From Candidatus Methylomirabilota bacterium (GTDB lineage: Bacteria; Methylomirabilota; Methylomirabilia; Rokubacteriales; CSP1-6), in the NCBI GenBank assembly GCA_035649755.1, contig DASRIY010000474.1, forward strand, positions 1 to 50,530: a stretch of DNA of 50,530 bases. The letters run 5' to 3'. The position numbers were made by a program, and so were the translations under genes. This document shows positions 543 to 24,882 of this stretch, piece after piece; within the stretch, counting starts at the first letter, position 1, and every line of letters begins with the position of its first letter. The notes under the pieces were generated by a model that had not been told where the DNA came from, did no database searches, and saw only the letters and a program-made list of their open reading frames with translations.

Positions 543-1808
543 CTATCTTCGAACGACGCGGCGCGCCTTTAGCTCGTAGCGCGGGAGGCTCCGGAGAGGC
601 ACCGCCGTGACCTCGAACCGGATTCCGAGGGTGGCCCGCAGGGCCTCCTGAAGCCGGGAGGCGCCCGCCGCGTCCCCAATCTCGACGAGTACCCGAACCT
701 CGTCGAGCTCCCCCGCACGGAAGACCTCGATCTGGAACTCGTCGATCGTCGGGAAGCGCCTGACTACCCCCTCGATCGCCGCGGGAAAGACGTTCACGCC
801 GCGCACGATGAGCATGTCGTCGAGCCGGCCCAAGATGCCGCCCTCGAGCCGGACGAACGTACGACCGCATGGGCACGGCCTGTCGGCCAGCCTGACGTGA
901 TCGCCGGTCCGGTACCGGATGGCCGGCGAGCCCACCCGCCCGAGATTGGTCAGGACCAGCTCGCCGTCACGCGCGGGGGCAGCCGTCAGCGGGTCGATCA
1001 CCTCGGCGATGAACTCGGACTCGTTGACGTGAAGCCCGCCCCGCTCGGCGCACTCGTAGCCGTAGGCGCCCATCTCGGTCATACCGCCGTGGTCGTACGT
1101 CCTTGCGCCCCAGGCCTCCTCGATACGGGCGCGCACCGCCGGGATCCCTGCCCCCGGCTCGCCCGCGTGCACGGTGATCCGCATCGGCAGCCGGCCGAGG
1201 TCGATGGAGCGCTCGCGGGCGACCTCGGCCAGGTGCAGGGCATAGGACGGCGTGCACACGAGGACCGTCGCGCCGAGGGCCTCCATGGCGGCCAGGCGCG
1301 TCGGCGAGTCCTGGCCCCCGCCGGGAATGGCCAGCGCGCCGAGCGCCCGGGCGCCCTCGAATCCGGCCCAGAACCCGATGAAGAGACCGAACGAGAACGG
1401 GAAAAAGACGCGATCCACGGGCTCCACACCGGCGCCTCTCAGAACGAACCCCCAGCAGCGCGCCCACCACTCCCACGATTCCTGCGTGTCGAGCCATCGG
1501 ATCGGCGCGCCGCTCGTGCCCGATGTCTGGTGCACGCGAACGTAGCGCTCGAGTGGGAACGTGAGATTGGCGCCGAAGGGCGGATTCGCGGCCTGATCGT
1601 CGACCAGCTCCGCCTTTCGCGTCAGGGGCACACGCCGGAAGTCGTCCCAGCTGCGGAGATCGTCGACCGAGGCGATTCCCGCCTCGCGCCACTTGCGCGC
1701 GACGAAGCGGTTCGAGGCGAGAAGCTGGGCCGCCATGGCGCGAAAGCGGCGCCACTGGTGATCGCGCAGAGGATCGGAGCCGAGCGTCTCCAGCGCGCGG
1801 TCGAACAC
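543..1808 (-). CDS. Phenylacetate-CoA ligase (PaaK)-like aryl-CoA ligase
   Basis: HQTSGTSG P-loop, CTPSYALHL, GEPG, YRTGD, GRLDDMLIVRGVNVFP and a C-terminal KARRV. Confidence 0.85.
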   Translation of the reverse strand: MFDRALETLGSDPLRDHQWRRFRAMAAQLLASNRFVARKWREAGIASVDDLRSWDDFRRVPLTRKAELVDDQAANPPFGANLTFPLERYVRVHQTSGTSGAPIRWLDTQESWEWWARCWGFVLRGAGVEPVDRVFFPFSFGLFIGFWAGFEGARALGALAIPGGGQDSPTRLAAMEALGATVLVCTPSYALHLAEVARERSIDLGRLPMRITVHAGEPGAGIPAVRARIEEAWGARTYDHGGMTEMGAYGYECAERGGLHVNESEFIAEVIDPLTAAPARDGELVLTNLGRVGSPAIRYRTGDHVRLADRPCPCGRTFVRLEGGILGRLDDMLIVRGVNVFPAAIEGVVRRFPTIDEFQIEVFRAGELDEVRVLVEIGDAAGASRLQEALRATLGIRFEVTAVPLRSLPRYELKARRVVRR

Positions 1809-1822
1809 CGTCCGCGTGGCCC

Positions 1823-3373
1823 TCAGGCCCTGAGCTTGAACCGCTGGATCTTGCCGGTCGCGGTCTTGGGCAGCTCGGCGACGAAGTCGATCCAGCGGGG
1901 GTACTTGTAGGGAGCGATCTTGTCCTTCACGAAGGCCTTGAGCTCGTCGGCGAGCTTATCGCCGCCGCTCGCCGGCTCCTTGAGGACGACGAAGGCCTGC
2001 GGCTTGACCAGCCGATCGCTGTCCTCACGGCCGACCACCGCCGCCTCCAGCACCGCCGGGTGGCGCACCAGCGTCGCCTCGACCTCCACCGGCGAGACCC
2101 AGATGCCGCCAACCTTCAGCATGTCGTCCGAACGGCCGCAATACCAGAAGTAGCCCTCGGCGTCCTCGTAGTACTTGTCGCCTGTCTGGATCCACGGGCC
2201 GAAGAGCGTCTCCTTGGTCTTGTCGTGCTTGTTCCAGTAGTACGCCATCGTCGAGTCGCCCTTGACGCGCAGGTTGCCGATCTCGCCGCGCGGGACGCGA
2301 TGCCCCTCGTCGTCGACGATCGCGAGCTCGTAGCCGGGCACGGGCATGCCCGACGAGCCGGGCCGCGCGCGCCCCGGGCGATTCGAGATGAAGATGTAGC
2401 CGATCTCGGTGGTGCCGATGCCGTCGATGATCTCCACGCCGAACCGCTCGCGCCAGCGTGTGAAGAGCTCGTCGGGCAAGGCCTCGCCGGCTGACACGCA
2501 GAGCCGGAGCGACGAGGTGTCGAAGCGCTTCTCGGCATCCTTCACCGCCAGCATCCCGGCGTAGAGCGTCGGCACGCCGAAGAACAGCGTCGGCCGGAAC
2601 CGCGCGATGACCTCGAAGACGCCCTCGGGCGTCGGGCGGTGCGGATAGAGCACGGCCTGCGCGCCGACGCTCATCGGAATGAAGCCGGTGGCGCCCAGGC
2701 CGTACGCGAAGAAAAGCTTGGCCGCAGAGAACACGCGGTCGTCCGGGCGGATCCCGAGCACTTGCCTGGCGTAGGTCTCGCAGCACACGACCATGTCGTG
2801 ATGCAGGTGCACCGCGCCCTTGGGAAAGCCCGTCGAGCCGGACGAATACTGCCAGTACGCCGGATCGTCGCGCGAGGTCGGCGCGGCGGCGAGGCTCGTC
2901 GACGCCTTGCCGACGCGGTCCTCGAAGGACATGTAGGGCCCCGGGGCGCCGCCGGCGACCAGCACGTGCTTGAGGTGCCTGGCCTCGGTGAGCGCGGGCC
3001 CCACCTCGGCGAGCAGCGCCGCCGACACGACCGCCACTTTCGCGCGGCTGTCGTTCAGGAAATAGAGATAGTCGGCGGTGCGCATCAGCGTATTGGTGGG
3101 AATCGGCACCGCGCCGATCTTGATGGCGCCCCAGAACGTCCCGATGAACTCCGGCGCGTCGAGGCAGAGCATGAGCACGCGGTTCTCGGGCTCCACGCCG
3201 ATCTCCAGGAGCGCGTTCCCGGTGCGGTTCACCAGCTCCTGGACCTGTCCGTACGTGAGCGTCCGGCCCTCGTACTGGAACGCCGGCGTCGCCCCGCGGC
3301 CCTCGGTGACGTTGCGGTCGACGAACCACGACGCCACGTTGAACTGCGCGGGCAGCGACTCCGACGCGATCAT
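1823..3373 (-). CDS. Benzoate-CoA ligase family protein
   Basis: YSSGSTGFPKG, AAKLFFAYGLG, SAGEALP, GRSDDMLKVGGIWVSP, APYKYPRWI and LPKTATGKIQRFKLR; sits directly downstream of boxB. Confidence 0.9.
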   Translation of the reverse strand: MIASESLPAQFNVASWFVDRNVTEGRGATPAFQYEGRTLTYGQVQELVNRTGNALLEIGVEPENRVLMLCLDAPEFIGTFWGAIKIGAVPIPTNTLMRTADYLYFLNDSRAKVAVVSAALLAEVGPALTEARHLKHVLVAGGAPGPYMSFEDRVGKASTSLAAAPTSRDDPAYWQYSSGSTGFPKGAVHLHHDMVVCCETYARQVLGIRPDDRVFSAAKLFFAYGLGATGFIPMSVGAQAVLYPHRPTPEGVFEVIARFRPTLFFGVPTLYAGMLAVKDAEKRFDTSSLRLCVSAGEALPDELFTRWRERFGVEIIDGIGTTEIGYIFISNRPGRARPGSSGMPVPGYELAIVDDEGHRVPRGEIGNLRVKGDSTMAYYWNKHDKTKETLFGPWIQTGDKYYEDAEGYFWYCGRSDDMLKVGGIWVSPVEVEATLVRHPAVLEAAVVGREDSDRLVKPQAFVVLKEPASGGDKLADELKAFVKDKIAPYKYPRWIDFVAELPKTATGKIQRFKLRA

Positions 3374-3374
3374 G

Positions 3375-4793
3375 TCAGGCCAGGCGGACGTATTCGAAAT
3401 CGACCGGCTGGCTGTTGACGCCGCGCGCGGGCGGCGCGATCCAGCTGGCGAAGCGGCCGCGCTCCGTCACCGGCCGCATCAAGCTCTCGACGTACGCCTG
3501 ATCCGCCTCGGTGGGCAGCCACGCGTGCTTGTTCGAGTCCCATGCGGCTTCGCTGAGCACGAGGCCGTCCGGCGACACCTTGACCTCGGCGAACAGGCCG
3601 ATCGCGCGGCGGAAGCCCCGGTTGGGCAGCCGGAGCTCGAAGTCGATCTCGTGCTTCTTGATGATCTGGTTCCACCGGTCGACCCCGCGCTGGCAATCGG
3701 CGATGTAGTCGTCGCGCAGCCGCTCGTTGAGCGAGGGCAAGGCGGGCGCCTCGCGCGTCGTGATGCGATCGCCGGCGAGCTCGCTCACCGTGTAGGTGGC
3801 ATCCTTGAGCCGGTGGTCGTCCTTCTTCTTCGATTCCTCGAAGCGCCCCTTGAGGCCCATGGTGTAGAAGTTGGCGGCGTTGGTCGAGACCTCGGACCCG
3901 AACAGGTCGAGCGATACCGAGTAGTGGAAGTTGATGTACTTCTGGAGCGTCTCGAGGTCGATCCCGCCCAGCCGCCGGACGTCGTCGGTCTTGCCCTCGC
4001 GCATGAGCTCGCACGTGCGCTGCACGACCCGCCCGATTCCGGTCTCGCCCACGAAGAGATGGTGCGCCTCCTCCGTCAGCATGAAGCGGCAGGTGCGCGA
4101 CAGGGGGTCGAAGCCGCTCTCGGCGAGGCTCGCCAGCTGATACTTGCCGTCGCGATCGGTGAAGTACGTGAACATCAGATACGACAGCCAGTCCGGTGTC
4201 TTCTCGTTGAAGGCGCCGAGGATGCGCGGCTTGTCGCGGTCGCCCGAGCGGCGCTGCAGGAGCGCCTCGGACTCCTCGCGGCCGTCCCGGCCGAAGTAGG
4301 CATCGAGCAGGTAGACCATCGCCCAGAGGTGGCGGCCCTCCTCGACGTTGATCTGGAACAGGTTGCGCAGGTCGTAGAGCGAGGGACAGGTGGCGCCGAG
4401 GTGGCGCTGCTGCTCGACCGAGGCGGGCTCGGTGTCGCCCTGGGTGACGATGAGCCGACGCAGGACGCCGCGGTACTCGCCCGGGACGTCCTGCCAGCAG
4501 GGTGCGCCGAGGTGATCGCCGAACCCGATCGTGCGCCCGGCTTCCGGTTCGGCGAGGAACAGGCCCCAGCGGTACTCCGGCATCCTCACGTAGTCGAACT
4601 GGGCCCACCCCTGCGCGTCGACGCTCACGGCGGTGCGCAGGTAGACGTCCTTCTGCTGGAAGCCGTCGGGCCCCATGCTCATCCACCAGTCGATGAACTT
4701 CGGCTGCCACTCCTCGAGCGCGCGCTGGAGCCGGCGGTTGTCGCCGAGGCTCACGTTGTTCGGGATGCGCTCGCTGTAGTCGATGCCGGCCAT
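3375..4793 (-). CDS. boxB: Benzoyl-CoA 2,3-epoxidase, diiron subunit BoxB
   Basis: Start moved to ATG 4793 (MAGIDYSERIPNNV; 472 aa). QGDTEPASVEQQ, EEGRH and EEAHH diiron motifs, DRDGKYQL; TGATG overlap with boxC. Confidence 0.95.
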   Translation of the reverse strand: MAGIDYSERIPNNVSLGDNRRLQRALEEWQPKFIDWWMSMGPDGFQQKDVYLRTAVSVDAQGWAQFDYVRMPEYRWGLFLAEPEAGRTIGFGDHLGAPCWQDVPGEYRGVLRRLIVTQGDTEPASVEQQRHLGATCPSLYDLRNLFQINVEEGRHLWAMVYLLDAYFGRDGREESEALLQRRSGDRDKPRILGAFNEKTPDWLSYLMFTYFTDRDGKYQLASLAESGFDPLSRTCRFMLTEEAHHLFVGETGIGRVVQRTCELMREGKTDDVRRLGGIDLETLQKYINFHYSVSLDLFGSEVSTNAANFYTMGLKGRFEESKKKDDHRLKDATYTVSELAGDRITTREAPALPSLNERLRDDYIADCQRGVDRWNQIIKKHEIDFELRLPNRGFRRAIGLFAEVKVSPDGLVLSEAAWDSNKHAWLPTEADQAYVESLMRPVTERGRFASWIAPPARGVNSQPVDFEYVRLA

Positions 4794-6466
4794 CACACTC
4801 TCCTCCGGTCGAACTCGCTGCGCCGGCCTGTACCGTACACCTCGAGCGCGCCCTTGGGACCCACCGCGTTCGCCCGCTGGAAGATCCAGTTCTGCCATGC
4901 CGAGAGGCGGCCGAATATCTTGCTCTCGATGGTCTCGGGACCGCCGAACCGGATCGAGGCCTCCATGCCCGTGAGCGCGTCCGGCGAGAAGGCGGCCCGC
5001 TCCTCGAGCGCGATGCGGACCTCGTCCTCCCAGTCGATGTCGTCCGGCGTGAAGGTGACCAGCCCGGCTTCCGCCGCCGCGGCGGCATCGAGATCCTCGC
5101 CGACCCGGGCGCGGAGCTTGTCGACGCGCGCGGGCTCGGCCAGGAAGCGGCTCGCCAAGCGGTTGAGGCCGTTGACCATCGGGTAGGCGCCGAAGTTCAG
5201 CTCGGTGAGCCGGACGGCCGCCGCGGGCCGGGTATCTCCGTCGCGCGTGCCGTCGAGCATGTACGAGCGGTCGGCGGCCAAAGCCAGCTCGAGCAGGGTT
5301 CCGGTGAAGCACGAGCCCGGCTCGATCAGCGCGAAGACCGACCGCGAGGACACCTCGATGCGCTTGAGCGTCCGCTTGAGGAACAGCCGGATCTCGCGCA
5401 CGAGCCAGTCGTCGCGGTGCGCCGCCAGCGTCCGGTCGTATGCCTCGACCAGATCACTCCGGCCCGTCGTCCGGAGCACCCAGACACCGATCGTTTCCTC
5501 GTTGGTGCGCAGGTGCAGGATCAGGTCGTCGAGCTCGCGCGCCATTGCGAGGGGCCAGAACGCGTCGCCGGCGGCGTGAATGCCGCTGGCGTCGGCCGGC
5601 GGCGGCTCGGTCGGCGCGTTCACGGTGATCTCGGCGAGACCGCGCCCCCGATCGATGTCGCACGCGACGTGGCGATAGCGGATACGATCGCCGTCGATCG
5701 ATCGCCCGAGCGGCGTCAGGGCCACACCCCGGGCCGCGGCCGGCCGGTCGGTGCGGGCCGCCAGGCCGCCGGCGCGCCGCTTCACGACCTCGTCGAGCGC
5801 CGAGCGCGGCGCGACCTCGTCGACCAGGCCCCATTCCACCGCGCGCGTGCCCTTGATGCCCTCCTCGACCGTGCAGAAGAAGTCGGCGCGGTCGCGGCGC
5901 ACGCGGCGCTTGTCGACGAGCCGCGTGAGACCGCCGGTCCCGGGCAACACGGCGAGCAGCGGCACCTCCGGGAGCGACACGGCCGTGTTGCCGTCGTCGG
6001 CCATGACGATCCAGTCCGTCGCCAGCGCCAGCTCGTAGCCGCCGCCGGCGCACGGCCCGTTGACGGCGCAGAGGTAAGTCTGGCGCGACTCGGCCGTCGC
6101 CTCCTCGATCGCGTTGCGGGTCTCGTTGGTGAACTTGCAGAAGTTCACCTTCCAGCCGTGGGCCGACTGCGCGAGCATCCGGATGTTGGCGCCCGCGCAG
6201 AACACGCGCTCCTTGCCCGAGGTGATGACGACGGCGCCGATTTCGGGATGCTCGAATCGCAGCCGCTGGATCGCGTCGTACAGCTCGACGTCGACGCCGA
6301 GGTCGTACGAGTTGAGCTTGAGCTCGTAGCCCGGACGGAGCCCGCCGTCTTCTCTCACGTCCATGGTGAGCGTGGCCACCGGGCCGGCGAAGCCGAGCTT
6401 CCAGTGGCGGTACCTGGCGGGCTCCGTCCTGAAGTCGACCTGGATGCGCTCGGCGGTTTCCGCCAC
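4793..6466 (-). CDS. boxC: 2,3-epoxybenzoyl-CoA dihydrolase BoxC
   Basis: Start moved to GTG 6466 (557 aa). LKLNSYDLGVDVEL, KVNFCKFTNETRN, LPEVPLLAVLPGTGGLTR and LSAWQNWIFQR are BoxC-type double-crotonase signatures. Confidence 0.95.
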   Translation of the reverse strand: MAETAERIQVDFRTEPARYRHWKLGFAGPVATLTMDVREDGGLRPGYELKLNSYDLGVDVELYDAIQRLRFEHPEIGAVVITSGKERVFCAGANIRMLAQSAHGWKVNFCKFTNETRNAIEEATAESRQTYLCAVNGPCAGGGYELALATDWIVMADDGNTAVSLPEVPLLAVLPGTGGLTRLVDKRRVRRDRADFFCTVEEGIKGTRAVEWGLVDEVAPRSALDEVVKRRAGGLAARTDRPAAARGVALTPLGRSIDGDRIRYRHVACDIDRGRGLAEITVNAPTEPPPADASGIHAAGDAFWPLAMARELDDLILHLRTNEETIGVWVLRTTGRSDLVEAYDRTLAAHRDDWLVREIRLFLKRTLKRIEVSSRSVFALIEPGSCFTGTLLELALAADRSYMLDGTRDGDTRPAAAVRLTELNFGAYPMVNGLNRLASRFLAEPARVDKLRARVGEDLDAAAAAEAGLVTFTPDDIDWEDEVRIALEERAAFSPDALTGMEASIRFGGPETIESKIFGRLSAWQNWIFQRANAVGPKGALEVYGTGRRSEFDRRRV

Positions 6467-7020: not shown

Positions 7021-8027
7021 GCGATTTCCTCCGACGCGGGCGCATCCTCGAACCCGGCGACGGCGGCGAGTGCCCGCGCGACGTAGACGCGCGCCACGCG
7101 CTTGCGGTACGGATGGCTGAAGTCGGTGTTGTCGAGCGGCTTGGCCGGCCCGGCCGCCAGGTTCGACGCGCGTTCGATCAGCTCGGGCGTGAAGCGCTCG
7201 CCGACGAGAGCCGCGGCCGCCTTCTCGGCCGGCCGCGGTAGCGAGGCCACCGCGCCCAGCACGATCCGCGCGTCACGCACGACCTCGCCGTCCATCCGGA
7301 CCGCCACCGCGACGCCCAGCACCGGGAAGTCGAACGACCCGCGGCGCCGGAGCTTCAGATAGACCGATCGCCAACCCTCAGCAGGCGGCAGCATGATGTC
7401 CGTGACGATCTCCTCCGGTCGCTTGGCGAGATAGTCGATGCCGTCGTCCCGATAGAGCGCTGCCATCGGCACCGTACGCTCGCCGCCGGCGCCGACCAGC
7501 CGCACCCGCGCGCCGAGCGCCCACAGAACCGGGGCGGTGTCCGAGGACGACACGGCCCAGCAGCGTGAGCTCCCGGGCGCCACCAGACAGATGTCGCCGT
7601 CCTTCTTCATGCAGAACCCGATCGCCTTCCGCCATTCGTACGACTGATTGTAATAGTTGCAGCGGGTGTCCACGCACACATTGCCCCCGATAGTACCCAT
7701 ATTCTGGAGCTGAGGCGACGACACCAGCCCGGACGCCGTCGCCAGCGCCGGAAAGTCGCGCGCGATCCCCGGATGCGCGGTGACGGCCGAGAGCGTCGTC
7801 GCGGCGCCGATCGTCCAGCCGTCGGACGAGCCCCGGACCCCCCGCAGCTCGCGGATTCCGCGGATCGCCACCAGGACCTTCGGCTCCATCTGCCGCCGCT
7901 TCATGTTGGGGAAGAGGTCGGTCCCGCCCGCCACGAGCGCCGCGTCACGTCCGTGCTCGGTCAAGAGGCGAGCGGCCGCGTCGACGGTATGCGGCGCGAC
8001 GTACGTGAACTCAGGCAATCGAATCAT
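7017..8027 (-). CDS. hcrB: 4-hydroxybenzoyl-CoA reductase beta-like FAD/[4Fe-4S] subunit
   Basis: AGGTDL and GTIGGN FAD motifs, plus a C-X15-C-X7-C-X8-C insertion (CNYYNQSYEWRKAIGFCMKKDGDICLVAPGSSRC) typical of HcrB. Confidence 0.8.
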   Translation of the reverse strand: MIRLPEFTYVAPHTVDAAARLLTEHGRDAALVAGGTDLFPNMKRRQMEPKVLVAIRGIRELRGVRGSSDGWTIGAATTLSAVTAHPGIARDFPALATASGLVSSPQLQNMGTIGGNVCVDTRCNYYNQSYEWRKAIGFCMKKDGDICLVAPGSSRCWAVSSSDTAPVLWALGARVRLVGAGGERTVPMAALYRDDGIDYLAKRPEEIVTDIMLPPAEGWRSVYLKLRRRGSFDFPVLGVAVAVRMDGEVVRDARIVLGAVASLPRPAEKAAAALVGERFTPELIERASNLAAGPAKPLDNTDFSHPYRKRVARVYVARALAAVAGFEDAPASEEIA

Positions 8028-10465
8028 GAGGTAAATGGCCGCGCGACGACGGCGTCGGCCGGCTGGCCAAACGCCGACTCGACCACGAGCGGCTCCTTGA
8101 AGGTCAAAAGTGGCAGCTTCTGAGGGCCGACGCGGCCAGGCCGGCCCAGCCGCTTTTCCTCCAGCGCCTTGAGAATCTTGTCGGGCGTGATCGGGACCTC
8201 GTCGATCCGGATCCCGAGCGCGTGATGGATCGCGTTCGCGATGGCCGGAATCACCGGGAGCAGCGGCCCCTGCCCCGCTTCCTTGGCGCCGAACGGTCCC
8301 TCCGGATCATCGGTCTCCACGAGGATGGTGTGGATCTCGGGCGTCTCGAGGGTGGTCGGGCTCTTGTAGTCGAGCATCGAGGGGTGCTTGTGCAGATTCT
8401 TCCTGAACACCTGCTCCTCCATCAAGGCCTCGCCGATGCCCATGTAGACCGAGCCTTCCACCTGTCCCTCGACCAGGAGCGGGTTGAGGGCGCGGCCGAC
8501 GTCGTGGGCGATCCACACGTTCTCGAGATCGACCTGCCCGGTTTGCTCGTCGACGCTGAGATCGACGACACACGCCGAGTAGGAGTAGCAGGGGGACGGT
8601 CCGACGCCGCCGCCCTTGAATTTCCCCGCGCGCTTGGGCGGCGCGTACGAGCCCGGGAACGCCAGCACACCGTGCAGGGCCTCGCCGAGCTCGACCGCCC
8701 GCGCGAACGGCACCGCCTTGTCCCAGTCGTCGGACACCCCCACCTTGCGGTCGCGGGCCACGAGCGACGCTGGGCTCACCTCGAGCTTCTTCGCGACCGC
8801 CGTGAAGATGGCAGCGCGGAGGCGCTCGGCCGCCTGGATGGCCGCCATGCCGCACATGAGCGTGACGCGCGACGAGTACGAGCCCAGATCGACGGGGGTC
8901 AGGCTCGTATCAGCGGGATGAACGTGGATGTCCTTCGGATCGATGCCGAGGATTTCGGCCGTCACGTACGCGAGGACGGAATCCGACCCCTGGCCGATGT
9001 CGGTGGCGCCGCACAGCACCGCGACGCCGCCGCTGCGGTCCGCGCGCGTGATCACGCCCGAGTGGGGCATGTCGTTCCAGTAGATCGCGGTGCCGGCGCC
9101 GGTGAGATAGGCCGAGCAGGCGATCCCGACTCCCCGCTTGCGGGGTGATGCCGGCCCCGGCTGCTTCGCCGTGACCCCGAAGCGGGCGCGCTTGTCGCGC
9201 CAGCCCGAGGCCTCGACGACCTTGTCGATGCACTCGCCGAGACCGATCGTGGTGACGGTCAGATGGTTGGCGGTCTTGGTGAACGGCTCAGCGACGATCC
9301 GCCGGCGCAATGCCGCCGGATCGAGCCCGAGCTGCTCGGCCGCCTTATCGATCTGGCACTCGAGCGCGAAGCGGGGCTGGGGCGTGCCGTGACCGCGTTT
9401 GGGGCCGCACGGGGGCTTGTTGGTGAAGATGCGCGCCCCCTCGAACTTGTAAACGGGAATCTTGTAGGTCACCGGATTGATCACGCCCGTGTAGAACGTG
9501 GAGGCGACACCGTACGAGCCGTAGGCGCCGCCGTCCAGCCACGTGCGGAGGTGGCAGCCGGTGATGTCGCCCTGCTTCGTGAATCCCGTTTTGATCCACA
9601 TCAGCACGGGATGGCGGCCGCGGTGAGTGTAGAAGACCTCCTCGCGCGTCAGCGCGATCTTGACGGGCCGGCCGGTGAGCTTCGAGAGCTGGCAGGCCAC
9701 GATCTCGTGGGCGAACGGATCGGTCTTGCCCCCGAAGCCGCCGCCGACCGGCGTCGCGACGACACGCACGTGCGCGGCCGGGATGTCGAGCGTCTTGGCC
9801 AGGAGCCGGTGGACGTAGTGCGGCGTCTGCGTCGAGGACCACAGAGTGACCTTGCCGTCCGATCCCCACTGGGCGACCGCGGCGTGCTGCTCCATCGGCA
9901 GATGATTGTTACCTTCGAAGAAGAAGACGTCCTCGCGAACCAGATCGGCCCGCTCGAAGGCGCTCTCGACGTCGCCGAACTGGAGGGCGACGTTCTTGTG
10001 GACGTTCGGCCCGTCGCCGTAGTCGTGAATGCGGACCTCGGGATGGGTGAGCGAGTCGAAGATGGACATGAGGGCCGGCAAGGGCTCGTAGTCCACGTCG
10101 ATGAGCCGGCAGGCGCGCTCGGCGGTCTCCTCGTCGACGGCCGCCACCGCGGCGATCGGGTCGCCGACCATGCGCACCTTGTCGTTGCACAGGGCTTCCT
10201 CGTCCTGCGAGACCGGCAGGATGCCGAACTTCACGCGCGGCAGGTCGGCGCCGGTGACGACCGCGTAGACTCCGGGCAGGGCAAGGGCCCGCGTCGTGTC
10301 GATGGAGCGGATGCGGGCGTGGGCGTGCGCGCTGCGGAGCAGCTTGCCGTACGCCATGCGCGGCAGGAAGAGATCGTCGGCGTACTTCGTCTCGCCGACC
10401 ACCTTCGCCCACGCGTCGATCTTGGGCAGCGGCTGGCCGATGACCGCGAAGTCGTTCTTGCTCAT
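8024..10465 (-). CDS. hcrA: 4-hydroxybenzoyl-CoA reductase alpha-like molybdopterin subunit (xanthine dehydrogenase family)
   Basis: Start moved to ATG 10465 (MSKNDFAVIGQ; 813 aa). STQTPH, GGGFGGK, RGHG, DIGQGS, GSYSSRVT and GQVEG motifs; the catalytic motif reads GAKEAGQG. Confidence 0.75.
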   Translation of the reverse strand: MSKNDFAVIGQPLPKIDAWAKVVGETKYADDLFLPRMAYGKLLRSAHAHARIRSIDTTRALALPGVYAVVTGADLPRVKFGILPVSQDEEALCNDKVRMVGDPIAAVAAVDEETAERACRLIDVDYEPLPALMSIFDSLTHPEVRIHDYGDGPNVHKNVALQFGDVESAFERADLVREDVFFFEGNNHLPMEQHAAVAQWGSDGKVTLWSSTQTPHYVHRLLAKTLDIPAAHVRVVATPVGGGFGGKTDPFAHEIVACQLSKLTGRPVKIALTREEVFYTHRGRHPVLMWIKTGFTKQGDITGCHLRTWLDGGAYGSYGVASTFYTGVINPVTYKIPVYKFEGARIFTNKPPCGPKRGHGTPQPRFALECQIDKAAEQLGLDPAALRRRIVAEPFTKTANHLTVTTIGLGECIDKVVEASGWRDKRARFGVTAKQPGPASPRKRGVGIACSAYLTGAGTAIYWNDMPHSGVITRADRSGGVAVLCGATDIGQGSDSVLAYVTAEILGIDPKDIHVHPADTSLTPVDLGSYSSRVTLMCGMAAIQAAERLRAAIFTAVAKKLEVSPASLVARDRKVGVSDDWDKAVPFARAVELGEALHGVLAFPGSYAPPKRAGKFKGGGVGPSPCYSYSACVVDLSVDEQTGQVDLENVWIAHDVGRALNPLLVEGQVEGSVYMGIGEALMEEQVFRKNLHKHPSMLDYKSPTTLETPEIHTILVETDDPEGPFGAKEAGQGPLLPVIPAIANAIHHALGIRIDEVPITPDKILKALEEKRLGRPGRVGPQKLPLLTFKEPLVVESAFGQPADAVVARPFTS

Positions 10466-17277: not shown

Positions 17278-18768
17278 TCAGAGATCGCCGAGCCCGAGCT
17301 CCTCCCACCGGGCGCGCACTCGCGCCTCGTCCTCCGGAGCCGGCCGGACGGTCGGCGGGAACCGCTCACCACCCCACTCCTTGCGGCGCTCGAGCTGCCA
17401 CGAGCGGGTCGCGTCGATCAGGACGCGGTTCCAGAGTCCGGTGCCGAGCTGCGCCACGTCCCGGTCCTCGAGCGGCGTGCTCGGGTCGATCGGCGAGCCG
17501 AAGATTCCCGGGAAGACCACGATGCCATCGCGGCCGGCGTTCACGCGGTGGGCGAACGCCCAGTCCACCTGCTCGTACGACGAGGGGTCGATGTCCTCCT
17601 CGACGACGATGACGTGCTTGTAGCGGAACTGCGCCGCGCTCGCGCCCCACAGGGCGGCGGCGATCTGCTTGGGTTGTCCCTGGTAGGCCTTCTTGATCTG
17701 GACCACGATGTTCACGCCGTTCGTGATCGGCGGGACGAAGACGTCGCGAATGCCCGGAATGCCGGCGTTCGTCAGGATGTGCCAGGCGATGGCCGCGCGC
17801 TGCACCGACGACATCACGCTGTTCTCGCTATACGAGCCGGGCAGCGTGCCCTCCAGGCAGCCGCGGAAGATCGGATCGCGGCGGTGCGTGATGCACGTGA
17901 TCTGCATCGTGGGGCGCGGCGTCGGGATGTCGGAGACGTAGCCCGTGAACTCGCCGAACGGCCCTTCGGTCTCGTAGGTCGCCGGGTCGTCGCTGATGAA
18001 CCCCTCGATCACGATCTCGGCGCTCGCCGGCACCTCGAGATCGACGGTCTCGCAGCGGACCAGCTCGGCGGGCTCGCCCCGATAGGCGCCCATCACGTCC
18101 CACTCGCAGACACCCGGCGGAATCGGCGACCCGGCCAGGAAGGGCATGATCGGATCCCAGCCGATGACGCAGGCGACCGGCATGGGCTCACCGCGGGCCG
18201 CGTACTTCAAGAAGTGCTGGCCCCAGTGCTGGCCGCCCTTGATGAGCAGGAACGGCGTCGTGTTCTTCTTGCCGACCATGCCCCGATAGATGCCCACGTT
18301 CATGACGCGCGTCTCGGGATCGCGGGTCACGATGCCCGAGAACGTGTGGATATAGCGGCCGCCCTCGAGGTAGTGCCACTTCGGGACCGGGAACTCCGTC
18401 TGGTCCACATCCTTGCCGCGCACGACCACGTCCTTGACGGGCCCGGTGGCGACGATCCGCGGCGCGATCGTCTGCCGGTTCAGTTTCATGACGTGCTGCA
18501 CCAGGTCGCGATTGGAGATGTCGCGCGGAAACCCGAGGGCCAGCGCCAGGCGGCCGACGCTGCCGAGCCCGCTCACCAGGAGCTTCGTGCACCGCCCGGT
18601 CTCGTAGCCCTTGATGTTCTCGAACAAAAGCGCGGGGCCTTTCTTCTCGAGCACGCGGCGCGCGATGGCGCCGAGCTCGCGGTCCCAGTCGACCGGGGCC
18701 GTAACCCGTCGCAGCTCGCCTTCCTTGTCCAGGCGCGTGATCCACTCGCGGAGGTCGACGAAGCTCAT
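17278..18768 (-). CDS. UbiD-family (prFMN-dependent) decarboxylase
   Basis: Start ATG 18768 (MSFVDLREWI). GPALLFENIKG, NVGIYR, VPASAEIVIEG and EGPFGEFTGY. Confidence 0.9.
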   Translation of the reverse strand: MSFVDLREWITRLDKEGELRRVTAPVDWDRELGAIARRVLEKKGPALLFENIKGYETGRCTKLLVSGLGSVGRLALALGFPRDISNRDLVQHVMKLNRQTIAPRIVATGPVKDVVVRGKDVDQTEFPVPKWHYLEGGRYIHTFSGIVTRDPETRVMNVGIYRGMVGKKNTTPFLLIKGGQHWGQHFLKYAARGEPMPVACVIGWDPIMPFLAGSPIPPGVCEWDVMGAYRGEPAELVRCETVDLEVPASAEIVIEGFISDDPATYETEGPFGEFTGYVSDIPTPRPTMQITCITHRRDPIFRGCLEGTLPGSYSENSVMSSVQRAAIAWHILTNAGIPGIRDVFVPPITNGVNIVVQIKKAYQGQPKQIAAALWGASAAQFRYKHVIVVEEDIDPSSYEQVDWAFAHRVNAGRDGIVVFPGIFGSPIDPSTPLEDRDVAQLGTGLWNRVLIDATRSWQLERRKEWGGERFPPTVRPAPEDEARVRARWEELGLGDL

Positions 18769-19775
18769 CGAAATAACACCGGCGCGACCTCGTTGAGGAA
18801 GCGCTTGAATTGACCCACCTGGTCCCACGAGCCGAAGCGCAGCGCCATGTGGCCGACGCCGGCGTCGAAGTAGGCGCGGAGCTCCTCCACGCATTGCTTG
18901 GGGGCGCCCGAGATGGTCCACTGCTCCACGAACTGGCGCGAGAAGTTCGACGTGTAGTACTTGTCGAGGAACGCCTTCGTCTCCTCGAGCCCCTTCTGGC
19001 GGTCCTCGGTGATGTTGATGTTGTGATAGAGCGCGCTGCCGAGCTTCGCGGGGTCGCGCCCCTCCTCCCGGGTCATGGCCGCGATGCGGCTCCACTGCTG
19101 CCGGAATTCGTCCGGCGTGAGCTTGTTCGTCATCCAGCCGTCGGCGTAGCGCGCGATGCGCCGAAAGGAGCGTTCCACGACCGCGTCGGACGCGGAGGCG
19201 CCGCCCTTCCACGTGAGGCCGGTAGGATTGGACGCGACCCAGATCGGACACGGCTGCTGCACCGGCCGCGGCTCGAGCGTCACGTCCTCGAACGAGTAGA
19301 ACCGGCCCCGATGCGAAACGTTCTTGCCGCCGAAGAGCTTGCGCAAGATGTCGATGCCCTCTTCCAGGCGTCCCACACGCTCGGCGGAGGGGATGCTCAT
19401 GACGCTGTGTTCGGCGGCCTGCGCTTTGTTGGCGTCGCTCGGCCCGCCGAGACACACCGCGAGCAAGGTCCGGCCGCTGGAGAGCACGTCGAGGCTCGCC
19501 CACTGGTGGGCCAGCATGACCGGATGGCGATGAACGAACGTGGCCATGCAGCCGACGCCGAGACGCAGCTTGGTGGTCACGCCGGCGAGCGCGGAGAGCA
19601 GCGTGATCGACTCCAGGCGCGGCTTGGCCAGCAGGCTGTCGCCGGCCCAGACGGCGTCGAAGAAGCCGGAGCGCTCCGCCTGCGCGGTGAGGTCGACGAG
19701 ATCCGCTACCTTGACGGCGCCGAGCACGACTGCGCGATTGGCCACGATCAGTCCGAACGACGGCTTTGCGGCCAC
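18765..19775 (-). CDS. LLM-class (luciferase-like) flavin/F420-dependent oxidoreductase
   Basis: Start GTG 19775. FDAVWAGDS, LDVLSSGR, PRPVQ.PCPIWVA and ARYADGW. Confidence 0.85.
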   Translation of the reverse strand: MAAKPSFGLIVANRAVVLGAVKVADLVDLTAQAERSGFFDAVWAGDSLLAKPRLESITLLSALAGVTTKLRLGVGCMATFVHRHPVMLAHQWASLDVLSSGRTLLAVCLGGPSDANKAQAAEHSVMSIPSAERVGRLEEGIDILRKLFGGKNVSHRGRFYSFEDVTLEPRPVQQPCPIWVASNPTGLTWKGGASASDAVVERSFRRIARYADGWMTNKLTPDEFRQQWSRIAAMTREEGRDPAKLGSALYHNINITEDRQKGLEETKAFLDKYYTSNFSRQFVEQWTISGAPKQCVEELRAYFDAGVGHMALRFGSWDQVGQFKRFLNEVAPVLFR

Positions 19776-19777
19776 GG

Positions 19778-20545
19778 CTACCTCCCTGTGTAGTTCGGCG
19801 GACGCTTCTCGAGGAAGGCGGTCACGCCTTCTGCGTAGTCGTGCGTCGACCGGAGCCATGCGTACGCCTTGCGCTCGAGCTCTAGCGCCGTCTCGAGCGG
19901 CGCCTCGGCGCCCCGGTTGAGTACCATTTTCAGGGTGCGGAGCGCCAGCGGCGCTCGCTCGGCCAGCTCGCCGGCCAGTCCATTGACGGCCTCGTCGAGC
20001 CCCTCGTTCGGCACGGCCCGGGTGATCAGCCCCCAGGCCTCCGCGCGCTCGGCCGAGATGCGCTGGCCGGTCATCATGAAGAGCTTGCCGCGCGTCATGC
20101 CCATGAGCCTGAGCGCGCGCTGGGTGCCGCCGCTGCCGGGGATCATGCCCAGCCGCACCTCCGGAAATGCGAACTCGGACCGGAGCGTGGCCACGCGGAA
20201 GTCGCACGCGACGGCCAGCTCGAGACCGGCCCCCATCGTATACCCGTCGATCGCGGCGATGACCGGCTTCCGGCACCGCTCGGCGGCGGTGAGCGTGTCG
20301 CCCCACAGCTCGAGATCGGCGGGCGCCAGCGTGAGGAACTCGGAGACGTCACCGCCGGCGCTGAAGGCCTTGCCGCCCGCGCCGCGGATGATCACGACGC
20401 GCAGGGACTCGTCCCGCTCGAGCGCGGCGAAGATCGCCGGGAACTCGTTTCGCATGGCGACCGTCATCGTGTTCATCTTCGCCTGGCGGTCGATCCAGAT
20501 GGTCGCGACAGCGCCGGCGCGCTCGACGCGCAGGAACTCGCTCAT
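19778..20545 (-). CDS. Crotonase-family protein resembling 2-oxoglutaroyl-CoA hydrolase HmfE
   Basis: Start ATG 20545. FSAGGD, KPVIAAIDG, GAGLEL, FPEVRLGMIPGSGG and YAWLRSTHDY. The HmfE resemblance is recalled, not searched. Confidence 0.8.
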   Translation of the reverse strand: MSEFLRVERAGAVATIWIDRQAKMNTMTVAMRNEFPAIFAALERDESLRVVIIRGAGGKAFSAGGDVSEFLTLAPADLELWGDTLTAAERCRKPVIAAIDGYTMGAGLELAVACDFRVATLRSEFAFPEVRLGMIPGSGGTQRALRLMGMTRGKLFMMTGQRISAERAEAWGLITRAVPNEGLDEAVNGLAGELAERAPLALRTLKMVLNRGAEAPLETALELERKAYAWLRSTHDYAEGVTAFLEKRPPNYTGR

Positions 20546-22083
20546 GGCCGCACCTCCGTGTACCGGCCGTCGCGCAGCAGCCGGCGAAGTATCTTGCCCG
20601 AGGCCGTCTTCGGAATCTCCGCGACGAAGACGAAGCGCCGCGGGCGTTTGAAGTTGGCGAGATCGCCGCTCGCCCGGCAGTGCCGGTCGAGCGCGTTGGC
20701 GGTGAGCCCCGGGGCCGCCACGACGAACGCCACCACGCGCTCGCCCCATTTCTCGTCAGGCTCGCCGATCACCGCCACGTCCTTCACGCCGTCGTGGCGG
20801 GCGAGGACGTCCTCGATCTCGACGGGATGGATGTTCTCGCCGCCGCTGATGATCATGTCGTCCACCCGGCCGGCGACCCAGAGGTCGCCGTCAACGTCGA
20901 CCCAGCCCATGTCGCCGGTGAAGTACCAGCCCTCGCGCAGCGCGCGGGCGTCGGCGTCGGGGCGATTCCAGTAGCCGGAAAACGCTTCGTCCGACGTGAG
21001 GCTCGCGATGATCTCGCCGCGCTCGCCGGCCGGCACTGCCTCGTCGGGCCCGACACGCCGCTCGGTGCTCGCGACCACGAGCCGGAGCGTCGAGTGGATG
21101 CCGGCCCGCCCCGCGCAGCCGGGCTTGGCCCGGACGTCGGGGAAGATCGAGAACGTGTAGATCTCGGTCGAGCCGTAGTGGTTGACGAAGACATCGGGGT
21201 GGAACGTCTTCGAGCACGCCTCGGTGAGCGGCGCCAGCATCGGCGCGCCGGCGTATGCGAGCTTGCGCACCGAGGCGACGTCCGTGCGCGCCAGCTCGGA
21301 AGTGTGCGTCAGCTCCCAGAAGAGCGTCGGGATCAGGTAGAGCGCGGTCAGTCGCTCGGTCGCGATCAGCTCGAGCGCGGTCCGGCTCGACCAGTCGGGC
21401 TGGCAGACGAAGCAGCCGTTGATCGCCGCCATGCTGGTGAGGGCGTGAATGCCCATCGTGTGATAGAGCGGCATGACGCCCAGCGTGCGCTCGCCCCACT
21501 CGTAGCCGCACTGGATCACGTGCGCCATGGCCCCTGCGTAGTGATTCTTGTGCGTTCTCGGCACGCCCTTGGGCCGCCCGGTCGTCCCCGACGTGTACAG
21601 GATCAGCGAGAGATCGTCCTCGCTCGGCGGCTCGAGCGCGCGCACGCCGGCGGTGCCACGTTCCAGGTCGGCGAACAGGCTCGTCCCCGCCGGCGCGGTG
21701 TCGCCCACGAACACGCGCCGGATCGAGGTCCCGCCGGTCGCGTCGAGCATCGTCGCGGCGGTCGAGTCCTCGTAGAGCGCGACCTTCGCGCCGGAGTCGT
21801 CCAACAGATAGCGAAGCTCGTTGGCGGCCAGGCGGAAGTTGACGGGGACGGCGACCGCGCCGAGCTTCTGGAGCGCCCAGTAGGCCACCACGTGCTCGAG
21901 GCGGTTCTTGAGGGCGAGGAGCACGCGGTCGCCCGGGGCGACGGCGAGCCGGGCGAAACCCAGCGCCACCCTGAGCGCGCGGCGATCCAGCTCGGCGTAG
22001 GTGAGCCGCTGTCCGCCGTCGACGACGGCCTCGGCGTCGGGCCGGCGGAGCGCTGCGCGCCCGAGGAGGTCGCCGAGCGTCAC
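20542..22083 (-). CDS. Acyl/aryl-CoA ligase resembling 2-furoate-CoA ligase HmfD
   Basis: YTSGTTGRPKG, PLYHTMG, VNHYGSTEIYTF, KPGCAGRAG and GRVDDMIISGGENIHP. Confidence 0.85.
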   Translation of the reverse strand: MTLGDLLGRAALRRPDAEAVVDGGQRLTYAELDRRALRVALGFARLAVAPGDRVLLALKNRLEHVVAYWALQKLGAVAVPVNFRLAANELRYLLDDSGAKVALYEDSTAATMLDATGGTSIRRVFVGDTAPAGTSLFADLERGTAGVRALEPPSEDDLSLILYTSGTTGRPKGVPRTHKNHYAGAMAHVIQCGYEWGERTLGVMPLYHTMGIHALTSMAAINGCFVCQPDWSSRTALELIATERLTALYLIPTLFWELTHTSELARTDVASVRKLAYAGAPMLAPLTEACSKTFHPDVFVNHYGSTEIYTFSIFPDVRAKPGCAGRAGIHSTLRLVVASTERRVGPDEAVPAGERGEIIASLTSDEAFSGYWNRPDADARALREGWYFTGDMGWVDVDGDLWVAGRVDDMIISGGENIHPVEIEDVLARHDGVKDVAVIGEPDEKWGERVVAFVVAAPGLTANALDRHCRASGDLANFKRPRRFVFVAEIPKTASGKILRRLLRDGRYTEVRP

Positions 22084-23108
22084 GAGACCAGGAGGACCTT
22101 CCCCTTGTTCTTGCGATCGAGCACGTGCTGCACGGCGGCACGGGCGTCCTTCAGCGGAAACGCGCGGTCAACAACCGGCCGCAGCCGGCCCTGCACCACG
22201 TGATCGAGCACCGTACCGAGCTCGACGATCGAGCCCAGGTTCGTGCCGAGGACGCGGAGATTCTTCGAGTAGACGTGGCGGAGATCGAGCCGGCCCCAGT
22301 GGGTGTCGTGGGAGCCGATCGTGACGAGCTTGCCGAGCCGGGTGAGCGCGTAGACCGACCGCTCGAACGTCTCGCCGCCGATGTGCTCGACGACCACGTC
22401 GACGCCGCGCTTGCCCGTCCACTTGCGCGTCTCCTCGACGAAGTCCTGCGTGCGGTAGTTCACGACCTGCTCGGCGCCCAGCGAGCGGGCGAACTCGATC
22501 TTGTCGTCGGAGCCGACCGTCGTGATGACGCGGGCGCCGCAGAGGCGCGCGATCTGGATCGCCGCGCTCCCGACGCCGCTGCCGGCGGCCTGGACCAGCA
22601 CCGTCTGCCCCGGCCTCACCTCGGCCTGCGCCACCAGCGCGTGCCACGAGGTGAGCATGGCCAGCGGCACCGCGGCGCCCGCTTCGAACGAGATGGCCTC
22701 CGGAAGCGGCAGGACGTTCGCCGCCGGCACCTTCACGAGCTCGGCGTAGCCGCCGTCCTTGTGCGCGCCGAGGTAGCCGTAGCGAACGCACACCGTCCGC
22801 TCGCCGCGCACGCAGTACTCGCAGCTACCGCAGGAGAAGCCGGGAAAGACGATCACCCGCTGACCCTGCTTGAGCCCCGTGCCACCAGGGCCGGTCGCGT
22901 CGATCGTGCCCGTCACCTCACAGCCGTTGACGTGCGGCAGCCCCTCGGGCGGCGGAAAGCGGCCGTCGAGCAGGAGCATGTCGACCTGGTTGAGCGCGCA
23001 CGCCTTCACGCGCACCAGCGCCTCGCCCGGGCCGATCGCCGGGTCGCGGTAGTCCTCGTACAGGATCTTCTCGGCGCCGCCGTGCTCCCGGAAGAGCGCC
23101 GCCTTCAA
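22080..23108 (-). CDS. Zn-binding MDR-family dehydrogenase/reductase
   Basis: TTG start 23108 with SD GGAGG, overlapping the upstream stop. CGSCEYC..C structural Zn motif and AAGSGVG. Confidence 0.87.
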   Translation of the reverse strand: MKAALFREHGGAEKILYEDYRDPAIGPGEALVRVKACALNQVDMLLLDGRFPPPEGLPHVNGCEVTGTIDATGPGGTGLKQGQRVIVFPGFSCGSCEYCVRGERTVCVRYGYLGAHKDGGYAELVKVPAANVLPLPEAISFEAGAAVPLAMLTSWHALVAQAEVRPGQTVLVQAAGSGVGSAAIQIARLCGARVITTVGSDDKIEFARSLGAEQVVNYRTQDFVEETRKWTGKRGVDVVVEHIGGETFERSVYALTRLGKLVTIGSHDTHWGRLDLRHVYSKNLRVLGTNLGSIVELGTVLDHVVQGRLRPVVDRAFPLKDARAAVQHVLDRKNKGKVLLVS

Positions 23109-24430
23109 AACGGCACCTCCGTGCGCTCGTCCTTGACGCGGCGAGCCTTGTGATCCCACCGCGGGAGCGATCCGGGCTCGCCGATCTCGACAGTGACGCG
23201 GATGCCGAGTCCGATCCGGATGTCGTCGGCCAGCTTCGCGCGAAGCCCGTCGCGCTCGCCGAGCGAGAGAGCAGGGGACGGATCGATGCGGATCAGGATG
23301 TCGTCGAGGCCCTCCTGACGCCGGAAGACGATCTGAAACTCGTCGACGTCGGCGTGCGGCCGCACTAGCTCCTCCACGCGCCGCGGGTAGACGATGACGC
23401 CCCGCACCTTCTTCATGTCGTCGAGCCGCGCCAGCACGCCGCCCTCGAACGCCACGAGCGAGCGCCCGCACGGACACCGCCGGTCGGCGAGCTGGACGAG
23501 ATCGCGCGTGCGGTAGCGGATGAGCGGCATCGCTTCCCGATAGAGGCTCGTGAAGACCAGCTCGCCGCGCTCGCCGGGGCGCACCGGCTGATCCTTTTCG
23601 TCGAGGATCTCGGGATAGCAGTAGTCCTCGTTCACGTGGGTGAGCCCGGACCGGGCGTCGCACTCGAAGCCCCACGCCGCGATCTCGGTGAGCCCGGGCA
23701 GGTCGTAGGCCTTCGCGCCGAACGCGGTCTCGATCTTCGCCCGGGTGGCGGGAATGGACGCGCCGGGCTCACCGGTATGCCAGGTGATGCGCACCTTCGT
23801 GTCCTTGGCGAGGTCGACGCCCTTCTTCGTCGCCGCCTCGGCCAGGAAGAGCGCGTACGAGGGGGTGCAGCCCAGCACCGTGATCGGATAATTCAGGAGC
23901 GCGTCGATCCGCTGATCGGTGGAGAGCCCGCCGACCGGGAAGACCAGGCAGCCCAGATCCTGTGCCGCGTAGAAACCCGACCAGTAGCCGATCCACGGCC
24001 CGTACGAGAAGGCCGCCATGACCATATCCGAGCGGCGCACGCCAAAGGCGTGGAGCGCGCGGGCATAGGAGTGATAGAAGCCGTACCAGTCATCGGGTGT
24101 GTCGAGGAACGCGAGCGGCCGGCCCGTCGTGGCCGACGTCATGTGAATGCGCAGCACGTCCGCCAGCGGCACGGCGAGCACGTCGCCCCACGGAGGCCGC
24201 GCAGCCTGGTTCTCCTTCAGCTCGTCCTTGGTCGTGAACGGCAGCGTCCGGAGATCGGCGAGCGTGCGGACGGCCGCCGGCTTGACGCCGGCCGCCTTGA
24301 GCTTCCGCTTGTAGAATGGGCTACAGCTCGCCGCGTGCCCGAGCTGCGCGCGCAGGCGCCGGGTCTGCAGCCGCGTCATGTCGGTCCGTGACGCGCGCTC
24401 CAGCCGCGGCTCGAGGTAGCGAGAGGCCAT
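23105..24430 (-). CDS. Second PaaK-like aryl-CoA ligase
   Basis: Start ATG 24430 (MASRYLEP). LPFTTKDEL, HMTSATTG, CTPSYAL, MPLIRYRTRD and KARRV. Confidence 0.85.
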   Translation of the reverse strand: MASRYLEPRLERASRTDMTRLQTRRLRAQLGHAASCSPFYKRKLKAAGVKPAAVRTLADLRTLPFTTKDELKENQAARPPWGDVLAVPLADVLRIHMTSATTGRPLAFLDTPDDWYGFYHSYARALHAFGVRRSDMVMAAFSYGPWIGYWSGFYAAQDLGCLVFPVGGLSTDQRIDALLNYPITVLGCTPSYALFLAEAATKKGVDLAKDTKVRITWHTGEPGASIPATRAKIETAFGAKAYDLPGLTEIAAWGFECDARSGLTHVNEDYCYPEILDEKDQPVRPGERGELVFTSLYREAMPLIRYRTRDLVQLADRRCPCGRSLVAFEGGVLARLDDMKKVRGVIVYPRRVEELVRPHADVDEFQIVFRRQEGLDDILIRIDPSPALSLGERDGLRAKLADDIRIGLGIRVTVEIGEPGSLPRWDHKARRVKDERTEVPF

Positions 24431-24441
24431 CCGGCGGCGGG

Positions 24442-24882
24442 TCAGGCGGTCGACAGCTGCTCGCTCATCCGGTTGAAGAACTGATCGGCCATCATCTTCG
24501 ACACGCCGCCGAGCATCCGCTGGCCCACGCCGGCGATGAGGCCGCCGACCTGCACGTCGGCGCTGTAGGTGACGCGCGTGCCGCCGTCGATGTCGGCGAG
24601 CGAAATGAGCGTATCGGCCCGCACGAACCCCGGTCCACCGCTGCCGTCGGCGGCCAGACGATAGGAGTCGGAGGGCTTCTTGTCCAAGAGCCGCACCTTG
24701 CCCTCGAACGTCCCCTTGACGGCGGCCACGCCGATCTTCAGCGTCGCCTTGTATTCGTCGGGGCCGATCATCTCGAGCTTCTCGCAGCCGGGAATGGCCT
24801 TCCGGAGCGTTTCCGGATCGAGAAACGCGCTCCACACTTTGTCGCGGGGCGCCTTGACCTCGTAGGAGCCTTCAAGCTTCAT
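24442..24882 (-). CDS. coxG: CoxG/SRPBCC family protein
   Basis: VWSAFLDPETLRKAIPGCE and VGGLIAGVGQRML; SD GGAG. Confidence 0.8.
   Translation of the reverse strand: MKLEGSYEVKAPRDKVWSAFLDPETLRKAIPGCEKLEMIGPDEYKATLKIGVAAVKGTFEGKVRLLDKKPSDSYRLAADGSGGPGFVRADTLISLADIDGGTRVTYSADVQVGGLIAGVGQRMLGGVSKMMADQFFNRMSEQLSTA

Follow-up and report, generated by a model that had tools for sequence, protein, structure and literature searches.

A glutamine in place of the catalytic glutamate in a relative of 4-hydroxybenzoyl-CoA reductase encoded with boxC and boxB in Methylomirabilota

The window analysed here is a stretch of 50,530 nucleotides from Candidatus Methylomirabilota bacterium (assembly GCA_035649755.1, contig DASRIY010000474.1, positions 1 to 50,530 of the forward strand). 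Its minus strand carries an operon in which the genes of a three-subunit molybdenum enzyme, here called hcrC', hcrA' and hcrB' for their likeness to 4-hydroxybenzoyl-coenzyme A (CoA) reductase (4-HBCR), stand upstream of boxC and boxB of the oxygen-dependent benzoyl-CoA pathway. The Mo subunit, HcrA', has a glutamine where the xanthine oxidase (XO) family has its catalytic glutamate. The locus raises the question of what such an enzyme does with this residue replaced, and what it does beside BoxB, the diiron subunit of benzoyl-CoA 2,3-epoxidase.

The active-site loop of the Mo subunit reads GPFGAKEAGQGPLLP on the minus strand, from 8300 to 8256. The ATG at 10465 is the true start of hcrA' (MSKNDF...) and gives a product of 813 amino acids in which the CAG codon is residue 732; a longer open reading frame, 10813-8024, extends over the upstream gene in a different frame. 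The codon, residue number and motif given in a first-pass annotation of this DNA were all correct on re-reading of the sequence. A phmmer search of the Mo subunit against all solved structures returned as by far the best match 1rm6_A, the alpha subunit of 4-HBCR, aligned over residues 8-772 (E-value in Table 1), followed by quinoline oxidoreductase QorL (1t3q_B) and CO dehydrogenase CoxL (8uem_A). GAKEAGQG of the query aligns without gaps to GAKEASEG of Thauera HcrA, GIKGMGES of QorL and GAKGIGES of CoxL, and Gln732 is opposite the Glu at residue 726 of the deposited 1rm6_A chain. The first-pass annotation had given the Thauera motif as KEASEG, which is right, and had asked whether the Glu of KEA might itself occupy the catalytic position. 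It does not: this residue, Glu729, is opposite the Gly of GAKG in QorL and CoxL, three residues ahead of the catalytic position, which is held by Gln732. The large subunits of xanthine dehydrogenase, aldehyde oxidoreductase and CO dehydrogenase share their fold and the domains that bind the molybdenum cofactor (Moco) with HcrA'. Hydroxylating members of the family use Glu as a general base, whereas HcrA' has Gln in the column aligned to QorL and CoxL. In PMC10420851, the Glu at this position is described as the conserved base of the hydroxylation half-reaction.

A single unusual codon might be a sequencing error or the mark of a decaying, inactive gene. The first-pass annotation had already held that the gene does not look decayed, and all three Pfam Moco domains are matched full length (PF02738 positions 10-242 of 244, PF20256 2-283 of 283, PF01315 2-110 of 110). 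It had also pointed to Glu in close homologues and to a G/C error as findings that would count against a real substitution. FGAKEAGQG is present in 120 of the 120 listed homologues of at least 88% identity, and contigs from two DNA studies and one RNA library that cover the codon show no difference among the matches listed (the RNA-library contig is not proof of transcription). All 20 loci fetched from genomes of the phylum, which span six family-level groups and identities down to 58%, likewise have Gln, with the motif variants GAKEAGQG, GAKEVGQG and one GAKEAGQV.

We further collected 80 metagenome loci by BoxB alignment, all of which are close BoxB relatives (69-96% identity). At least 3.7 kb upstream of boxB is available in 32 of these, and the Gln motif is present in 29 of the 32. 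Two exceptions, L099 and L114 (BoxB 73% and 69% identical), have no Hcr at all and are probably from other taxa. In the third, L092 (hcrA' at L092:2397-4646), an in-frame deletion of about 54 residues, joining SPTT to PITPEK, removes the GAKEAGQG loop from an otherwise syntenic hcr-box operon. Either a genuine variant without the loop or an artefact of assembly could account for this, and it is a point in favour of decay. Codon 732 is CAG at 51 of the 55 motif-bearing loci and CAA at the other 4, and since both codons occur, Gln has been kept through synonymous change; codon 729 is GAG in 36 and GAA in 19 of the same loci. In view of the conservation counts, error or decay is refuted for practical purposes, and we regard it as having next to no probability. 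By these comparisons, Gln732 is a fixed, selected replacement of the catalytic Glu.

The genome of origin (G000) contains more than 30 XO-family large-subunit genes, with 32 Pfam PF02738 matches and 34 open reading frames that align at the motif. Glu is found in 33 of the 34, none of which has the GAKE signature; the window copy is the sole Gln form and the sole GAKE form among them.

To see how widely Gln occurs, we took the best 150 matches from a HMMER search of 1.84 billion representatives. Removal of truncated rows and addition of the window protein and four close homologues left 140 full-length rows, with 124 Glu, 8 Gln, 3 Asp, 3 Met, 1 Arg and 1 Ile at position 732. The column of residue 729 has Glu in 46 of 144 rows. 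Among the 46 GAKE rows, 12 have lost Glu732 (8 Gln, 2 Met, 1 Arg, 1 Ile), five of the 12 being near-copies of the window clade, and among the non-GAKE rows 4 of 94 have (3 Asp, 1 Met). Loss of the Glu is thus concentrated in the GAKE branch.

In a FastTree phylogeny Gln needs at least three changes, in the Methylomirabilota clade, in P0125 and in P0161. The Methylomirabilota Gln clade has a support of 100, and its nearest rows, P0123 and P0127, have Glu; the Glu-type sisters are from Ignavibacteriales (P0123) and Acidobacteria (P0127, P0131). An approximately unbiased test in IQ-TREE, for a group that was named after sight of the first tree, rejects a single Gln clade (difference in log-likelihood 118.9, p = 0.0016). 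Gln has more than one origin and occurs in at least three lineages. The P0161 lineage consists of metagenome-assembled genomes (MAGs) of Dehalococcoidia; of the best 120 relatives of P0161, 111 show the motif, and 23 of the 111 have Gln, all 23 with GAKE. As a separate observation, Dehalococcoidia MAGs have two Gln-type HcrA-like paralogues, about 52-55% and 69-80% identical to P0161, on contigs of equal size (pairs P0288/P0297, P0294/P0301, P0289/P0302, P0290/P0305 and P0292/P0295), which suggests tandem Gln-type enzymes on one contig.

Apart from position 732, the enzyme resembles 4-HBCR closely. In both Thauera aromatica (HcrCAB, 1RM6/1SB3) and Rhodopseudomonas palustris (HbaBCD) the genes of 4-HBCR likewise follow the order gamma-alpha-beta, and 4-HBCR and the window enzyme have in common the Moco, two [2Fe-2S] and flavin adenine dinucleotide (FAD) domains, the Cys loop of the beta subunit for a [4Fe-4S] cluster, and GAKE. 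The Cys-rich insertion of the beta subunit, approximately 40 residues long, aligns to 1rm6_B with its Cys matched and corresponds to the loop that binds the additional [4Fe-4S] cluster in 4-HBCR, a feature connected with inverted electron flow; all 8 beta sequences aligned, one of them from Bacillota, have the five Cys. Compared with 34 Glu-type relatives with GAKE (consensus threshold at least 80%), the window clade departs from the consensus at five positions only, 38, 390, 406, 636 and 732. Position 732 alone is both 100% conserved in the Glu-type relatives and changed in all three Gln lineages. The two enzymes differ in the residue at this position, which is Glu in HcrA of 4-HBCR, and in their setting: 4-HBCR is encoded with anaerobic benzoyl-CoA genes, the window enzyme with the O2-dependent boxC-boxB in a soil phylum.

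The operon in the window runs hcrC', hcrA', hcrB', XRE regulator, boxC, boxB, a benzoate-CoA ligase family gene and a PaaK-like ligase gene. Overlaps of 4 bases join the gamma and alpha, alpha and beta, and beta and regulator genes, and in most loci two CoA ligases precede or follow the Hcr-like enzyme. We surveyed 201 genomes of the phylum (Rokubacteria/Methylomirabilota) and found BoxB above cut-off in 116. BoxA, searched for with TIGR03224 (a 2x[4Fe-4S] ferredoxin domain and an FNR-like domain), was above cut-off in 0 of the 201, and the window's own genome, which is 86% complete, has no BoxA above cut-off either. In 89 of the 116 BoxB genomes HcrA' is encoded on the same contig and strand as BoxB, 2.8-4.7 kb away; in a further 21 the two are on different contigs of fragmented assemblies, and six have no listed HcrA' match. 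The BoxB contigs of these six and of G157, which has a partial BoxB only, show hcr fragments at the contig end in four cases and end earlier in three, and all seven apparent cases of BoxB without HcrA' are contig truncations.

This linkage brings up the possibility that the Gln-type HcrCAB-like complex is itself the missing BoxA. BoxA of Aromatoleum evansii and Burkholderiales is the FAD/[4Fe-4S] reductase, dependent on reduced nicotinamide adenine dinucleotide phosphate (NADPH), that serves as redox partner of BoxB; the Hcr-like enzyme takes the place of that partner in the operon, and BoxA is not homologous to the Hcr-like subunits, which fall in other families. In Mycetohabitans the canonical cluster has the order regulator-boxC-boxB-boxA, without Hcr. 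The complex would reduce the diiron centre of BoxB and of short BoxB-like oxygenases, with electrons passing via its FAD and surface [4Fe-4S] cluster and the Mo site either silenced for hydroxylation or serving as the electron entry point. If this were true, the electrons might come from oxidation at its own Mo site, and the pathway would need no NADPH-dependent reductase. We consider this unlikely, and yet several findings speak for it. BoxB is found in more than half of the sampled genomes of a phylum in which BoxA scores above cut-off in none of them, the linkage of HcrA' to BoxB is near-obligate, and the 4-base overlaps tie the three subunits and the regulator together. The beta subunit has FAD and a [4Fe-4S] cluster, and BoxA has FAD and two [4Fe-4S] clusters according to PMC4498308. 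No other reductase gene was found within the phylum operons examined, and the space that separates boxB from the ligase gene in relatives contains only a RidA-like reading frame.

In addition, six of the 20 loci (L010:5323-7385, L011, L012, L015, L021 and L022) have the Gln-type trio next to a divergent, short BoxB-like diiron protein (395 amino acids; 213 bits, BoxB cut-off 499). These loci have a single-domain crotonase in place of BoxC and carry one or two benzoate-CoA-ligase-type genes, two together with a TetR regulator in family group f10. The same trio thus stands beside two kinds of oxygenase.

Other findings go against a replacement of BoxA. At loci G063 and G168 the Gln-type trio has no adjacent box genes. 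Neighbourhoods of boxB-boxC without BoxA and without Hcr exist as well, namely L099, L114 and a Nonomuraea record with boxB and boxC and neither BoxA nor Hcr within 10 kb; a missing boxA neighbour alone therefore does not call for Hcr. There is no evident electron source for such a module, and a pure relay would not need an 813-residue Mo subunit with a strictly conserved loop.

Our comparisons of Gln-type enzymes cover Methylomirabilota, Bacillota and Dehalococcoidia, and the contexts outside the phylum bear on the same point. The P0125 lineage consists of Bacillota MAGs and one record titled Brachybacterium, with Gln in 4 of 4 loci. Its longest locus encodes an ABC transporter, hcrC'A'B', a PaaK-like ligase, an HMGL-like gene and a three-gene 2-oxoacid:ferredoxin oxidoreductase, with no box genes within 10 kb, and a match to BoxB at E <= 1e-5 was found in 0 of 3 Bacillota genomes. 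This neighbourhood is the setting expected of a ferredoxin-driven reductase and not of a BoxB partner, and it counts against a replacement of BoxA. A BamA-type hydrolase (TIGR03200) was not found above cut-off in any of five genomes (3 Bacillota, 2 Methylomirabilota), so there is no sign of an anaerobic lower pathway in these.

The first-pass annotation had asked whether the Gln variant is a clade linked to boxBC. Within Methylomirabilota this holds, with a fully supported clade tied to boxC-boxB, and it does not extend to Bacillota and Dehalococcoidia, where Gln is independent. The further idea that Gln is an adaptation specific to the Box pathway is contradicted by the independent Gln enzymes of Bacillota genomes without BoxB, and by those of Dehalococcoidia.

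We tentatively favour, at a little short of an even chance, a reading in which the enzyme, as a Gln-type reductive aryl-CoA dehydroxylase, supplies BoxBC with its product. The enzyme would still be active, in the reductive direction. Electrons from a low-potential donor would enter at the surface [4Fe-4S] cluster of the beta subunit and reach Mo by way of FAD and both [2Fe-2S] clusters. Mo would abstract the ring oxygen of a 4-hydroxybenzoyl-CoA-type substrate, itself the product of one or other of the operon's two CoA ligases. BoxB and BoxC, encoded downstream, would then receive the resulting benzoyl-CoA. Removal of oxygen should need no general base of the kind that hydroxylases use to activate Mo-OH, and the invariant Glu729 of GAKE, three residues upstream, may carry protons, so that Gln could be tolerated at position 732, as could the Arg, Met or Ile of other members of the branch.

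Characterised members of the GAKE branch remove oxygen rather than insert it. The repeated loss of the Glu in an oxygen-removing branch that has a second Glu suggests that the hydroxylase base is dispensable there. The first-pass annotation had offered altered chemistry or a redox-relay role as explanations; the strict conservation of Gln732, Glu729 and the whole loop argues for a working, not vestigial, Mo site with altered proton handling, and thus for the former and not for a mere relay.

Several points weigh against a reductive dehydroxylase feeding BoxBC. 4-HBCR is oxygen-sensitive and ferredoxin-dependent, and BoxB requires O2. Neither a ferredoxin gene nor one for a 2-oxoacid oxidoreductase is present in the Methylomirabilota operon. 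None of the three subunits reaches the equivalog cut-off of the corresponding NCBIfam model (alpha 839.9 bits for TIGR03194, cut-off 994.55; beta 285.8 for TIGR03195, cut-off 404.55; gamma 188.8 for TIGR03193, cut-off 257.8), and the window protein is best described as a close structural relative of 4-HBCR that lacks the Glu and falls short of the equivalog scores. This reading also gives BoxB no identified reductase, with no BoxA above cut-off in the phylum sample, and the trio beside the short BoxB-like oxygenase fits a partner role at least as well as that of a feeder. Finally, there is the urolithin C 9-dehydroxylase UcdCFO of Enterocloster, likewise a member of the XO family that removes oxygen reductively, and modelled on 1RM6 by its authors (PMC11760930). 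UcdO keeps its Glu, E741, and acts on a substrate that is not a CoA thioester, whereas the window enzyme has Gln; E741 is called essential in PMC11760930 and PMC13753352.

It should be noted that a reductive dehydroxylase and a BoxA replacement are not mutually exclusive. The full form of the latter, a non-homologous reductase with its hydroxylase base removed that serves diiron acyl-CoA epoxidases across a whole soil phylum, is given a low probability here. A third explanation places the enzyme after BoxB. It would act in salvage or detoxification, removing oxygen from 2,3-epoxybenzoyl-CoA or from a rearranged hydroxybenzoyl-CoA and regenerating benzoyl-CoA, again with no general base needed. 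In both types of cluster its genes are closely linked to those of BoxB or a BoxB-like epoxidase, and the enzyme is kin to an oxygen-abstracting Mo enzyme and has lost the base. PaaABCE, a related oxygenase, removes the oxygen from its epoxide again. For BoxB, PMC4498308 states that the epoxide it forms is inhibitory to it. This explanation is drawn purely from chemistry, and the Gln-type enzymes of Bacillota and Dehalococcoidia have no epoxidase nearby; we regard it as improbable.

Published work on the XO family, recent studies of reductive dehydroxylases included, regards the active-site Glu as universal and essential (PMC10420851, PMC11760930 and PMC13753352). A natural, selected Gln form, present in at least three lineages and abundant in soil metagenomes, suggests that some reactions of this fold may not need the Glu. 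For a widespread soil phylum with BoxB and BoxC in which BoxA was not detected, either an 'anaerobic' dehydroxylase would feed O2-dependent ring opening, or the epoxidase would have an undescribed reductase, and either answer bears on the degradation of plant phenolic acids at low oxygen. Our literature search, which reached few subscription journals, found no paper describing the Gln form and none joining 4-HBCR with BoxA/BoxB or the box pathway; nor was a relevant paper found on Rokubacteria with benzoyl-CoA.

Table 1. Features of the hcr-box operon in the window. Coordinates are those of the forward strand.
Feature	Position	Strand	Basis
HcrC-like gamma subunit, two [2Fe-2S] domains, 161 amino acids	10462..10947	-	Pfam Fer2, Fer2_2
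HcrA-like molybdopterin alpha subunit, 813 amino acids	8024..10465	-	1rm6_A E = 1.4e-183; PF01315, PF02738, PF20256
Active-site loop GPFGAKEAGQGPLLP of Mo subunit	8256..8300	-	Sequence read and structure alignments
GAA codon, Glu729, second Glu of GAKE signature	8279..8281	-	3 residues upstream of Gln732; specific to HcrA-like branch
CAG codon, Gln732	8272-8270	-	Aligned at catalytic Glu position of XO family
HcrB-like FAD beta subunit, 336 amino acids	7017..8027	-	1rm6_B E = 1.3e-56
Cys-rich insertion of beta subunit (C118, C123, C139, C147, C156)	7560..7676	-	1rm6_B alignment
XRE-type helix-turn-helix regulator (PuuR-like), 182 amino acids	6472..7020	-	Syntenic in related loci
boxC	4793..6439	-	TIGR03222 917 bits, cut-off 712.3
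boxB, benzoyl-CoA 2,3-epoxidase diiron subunit	3375..4787	-	TIGR03225 851 bits, cut-off 499.1
Benzoate-CoA ligase family gene	1823..3373	-	TIGR02262 696.2 bits, cut-off 375.25
PaaK-like aryl-CoA ligase	543..1808	-	Below PaaK cut-offs; syntenic in relatives

The operon encodes no aldehyde dehydrogenase, and three such genes are found elsewhere in the same genome. We know of no BoxD-specific model. For two of the three, no BoxD- or PaaN-type model is among the best 25 families listed, which is not evidence of absence, and the third gave no NCBIfam match at E <= 1e-60 in the frame tried, which is likewise not evidence that BoxD is absent.

Some variation was seen among related loci. In relatives, a RidA/YjgF-like open reading frame of approximately 150-170 amino acids lies between boxB and the benzoate-CoA ligase gene (L019:11030-11760, L025:7450-8080 and L121:4150-4760); it is missing from the window, where the two genes abut. 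Locus L121 has imperfect tandem repeats, which translate as ...RAPTDM..., between the end of hcrB' and the regulator gene (L121:100-530). Two hcrA' matches, G120:C217:5143-7530 and G053:C11:34041-36401, have one in-frame TAG stop each, which could reflect a pseudogene, a sequencing error or read-through.

The window has a second CoA-dependent operon on the minus strand at 17278-24835. It encodes a UbiD-family (de)carboxylase, an F420/LLM-type oxidoreductase, an enoyl-CoA hydratase, an acyl-CoA ligase, a quinone-oxidoreductase-like gene and another PaaK-like ligase, and may represent a further aromatic-acid route.

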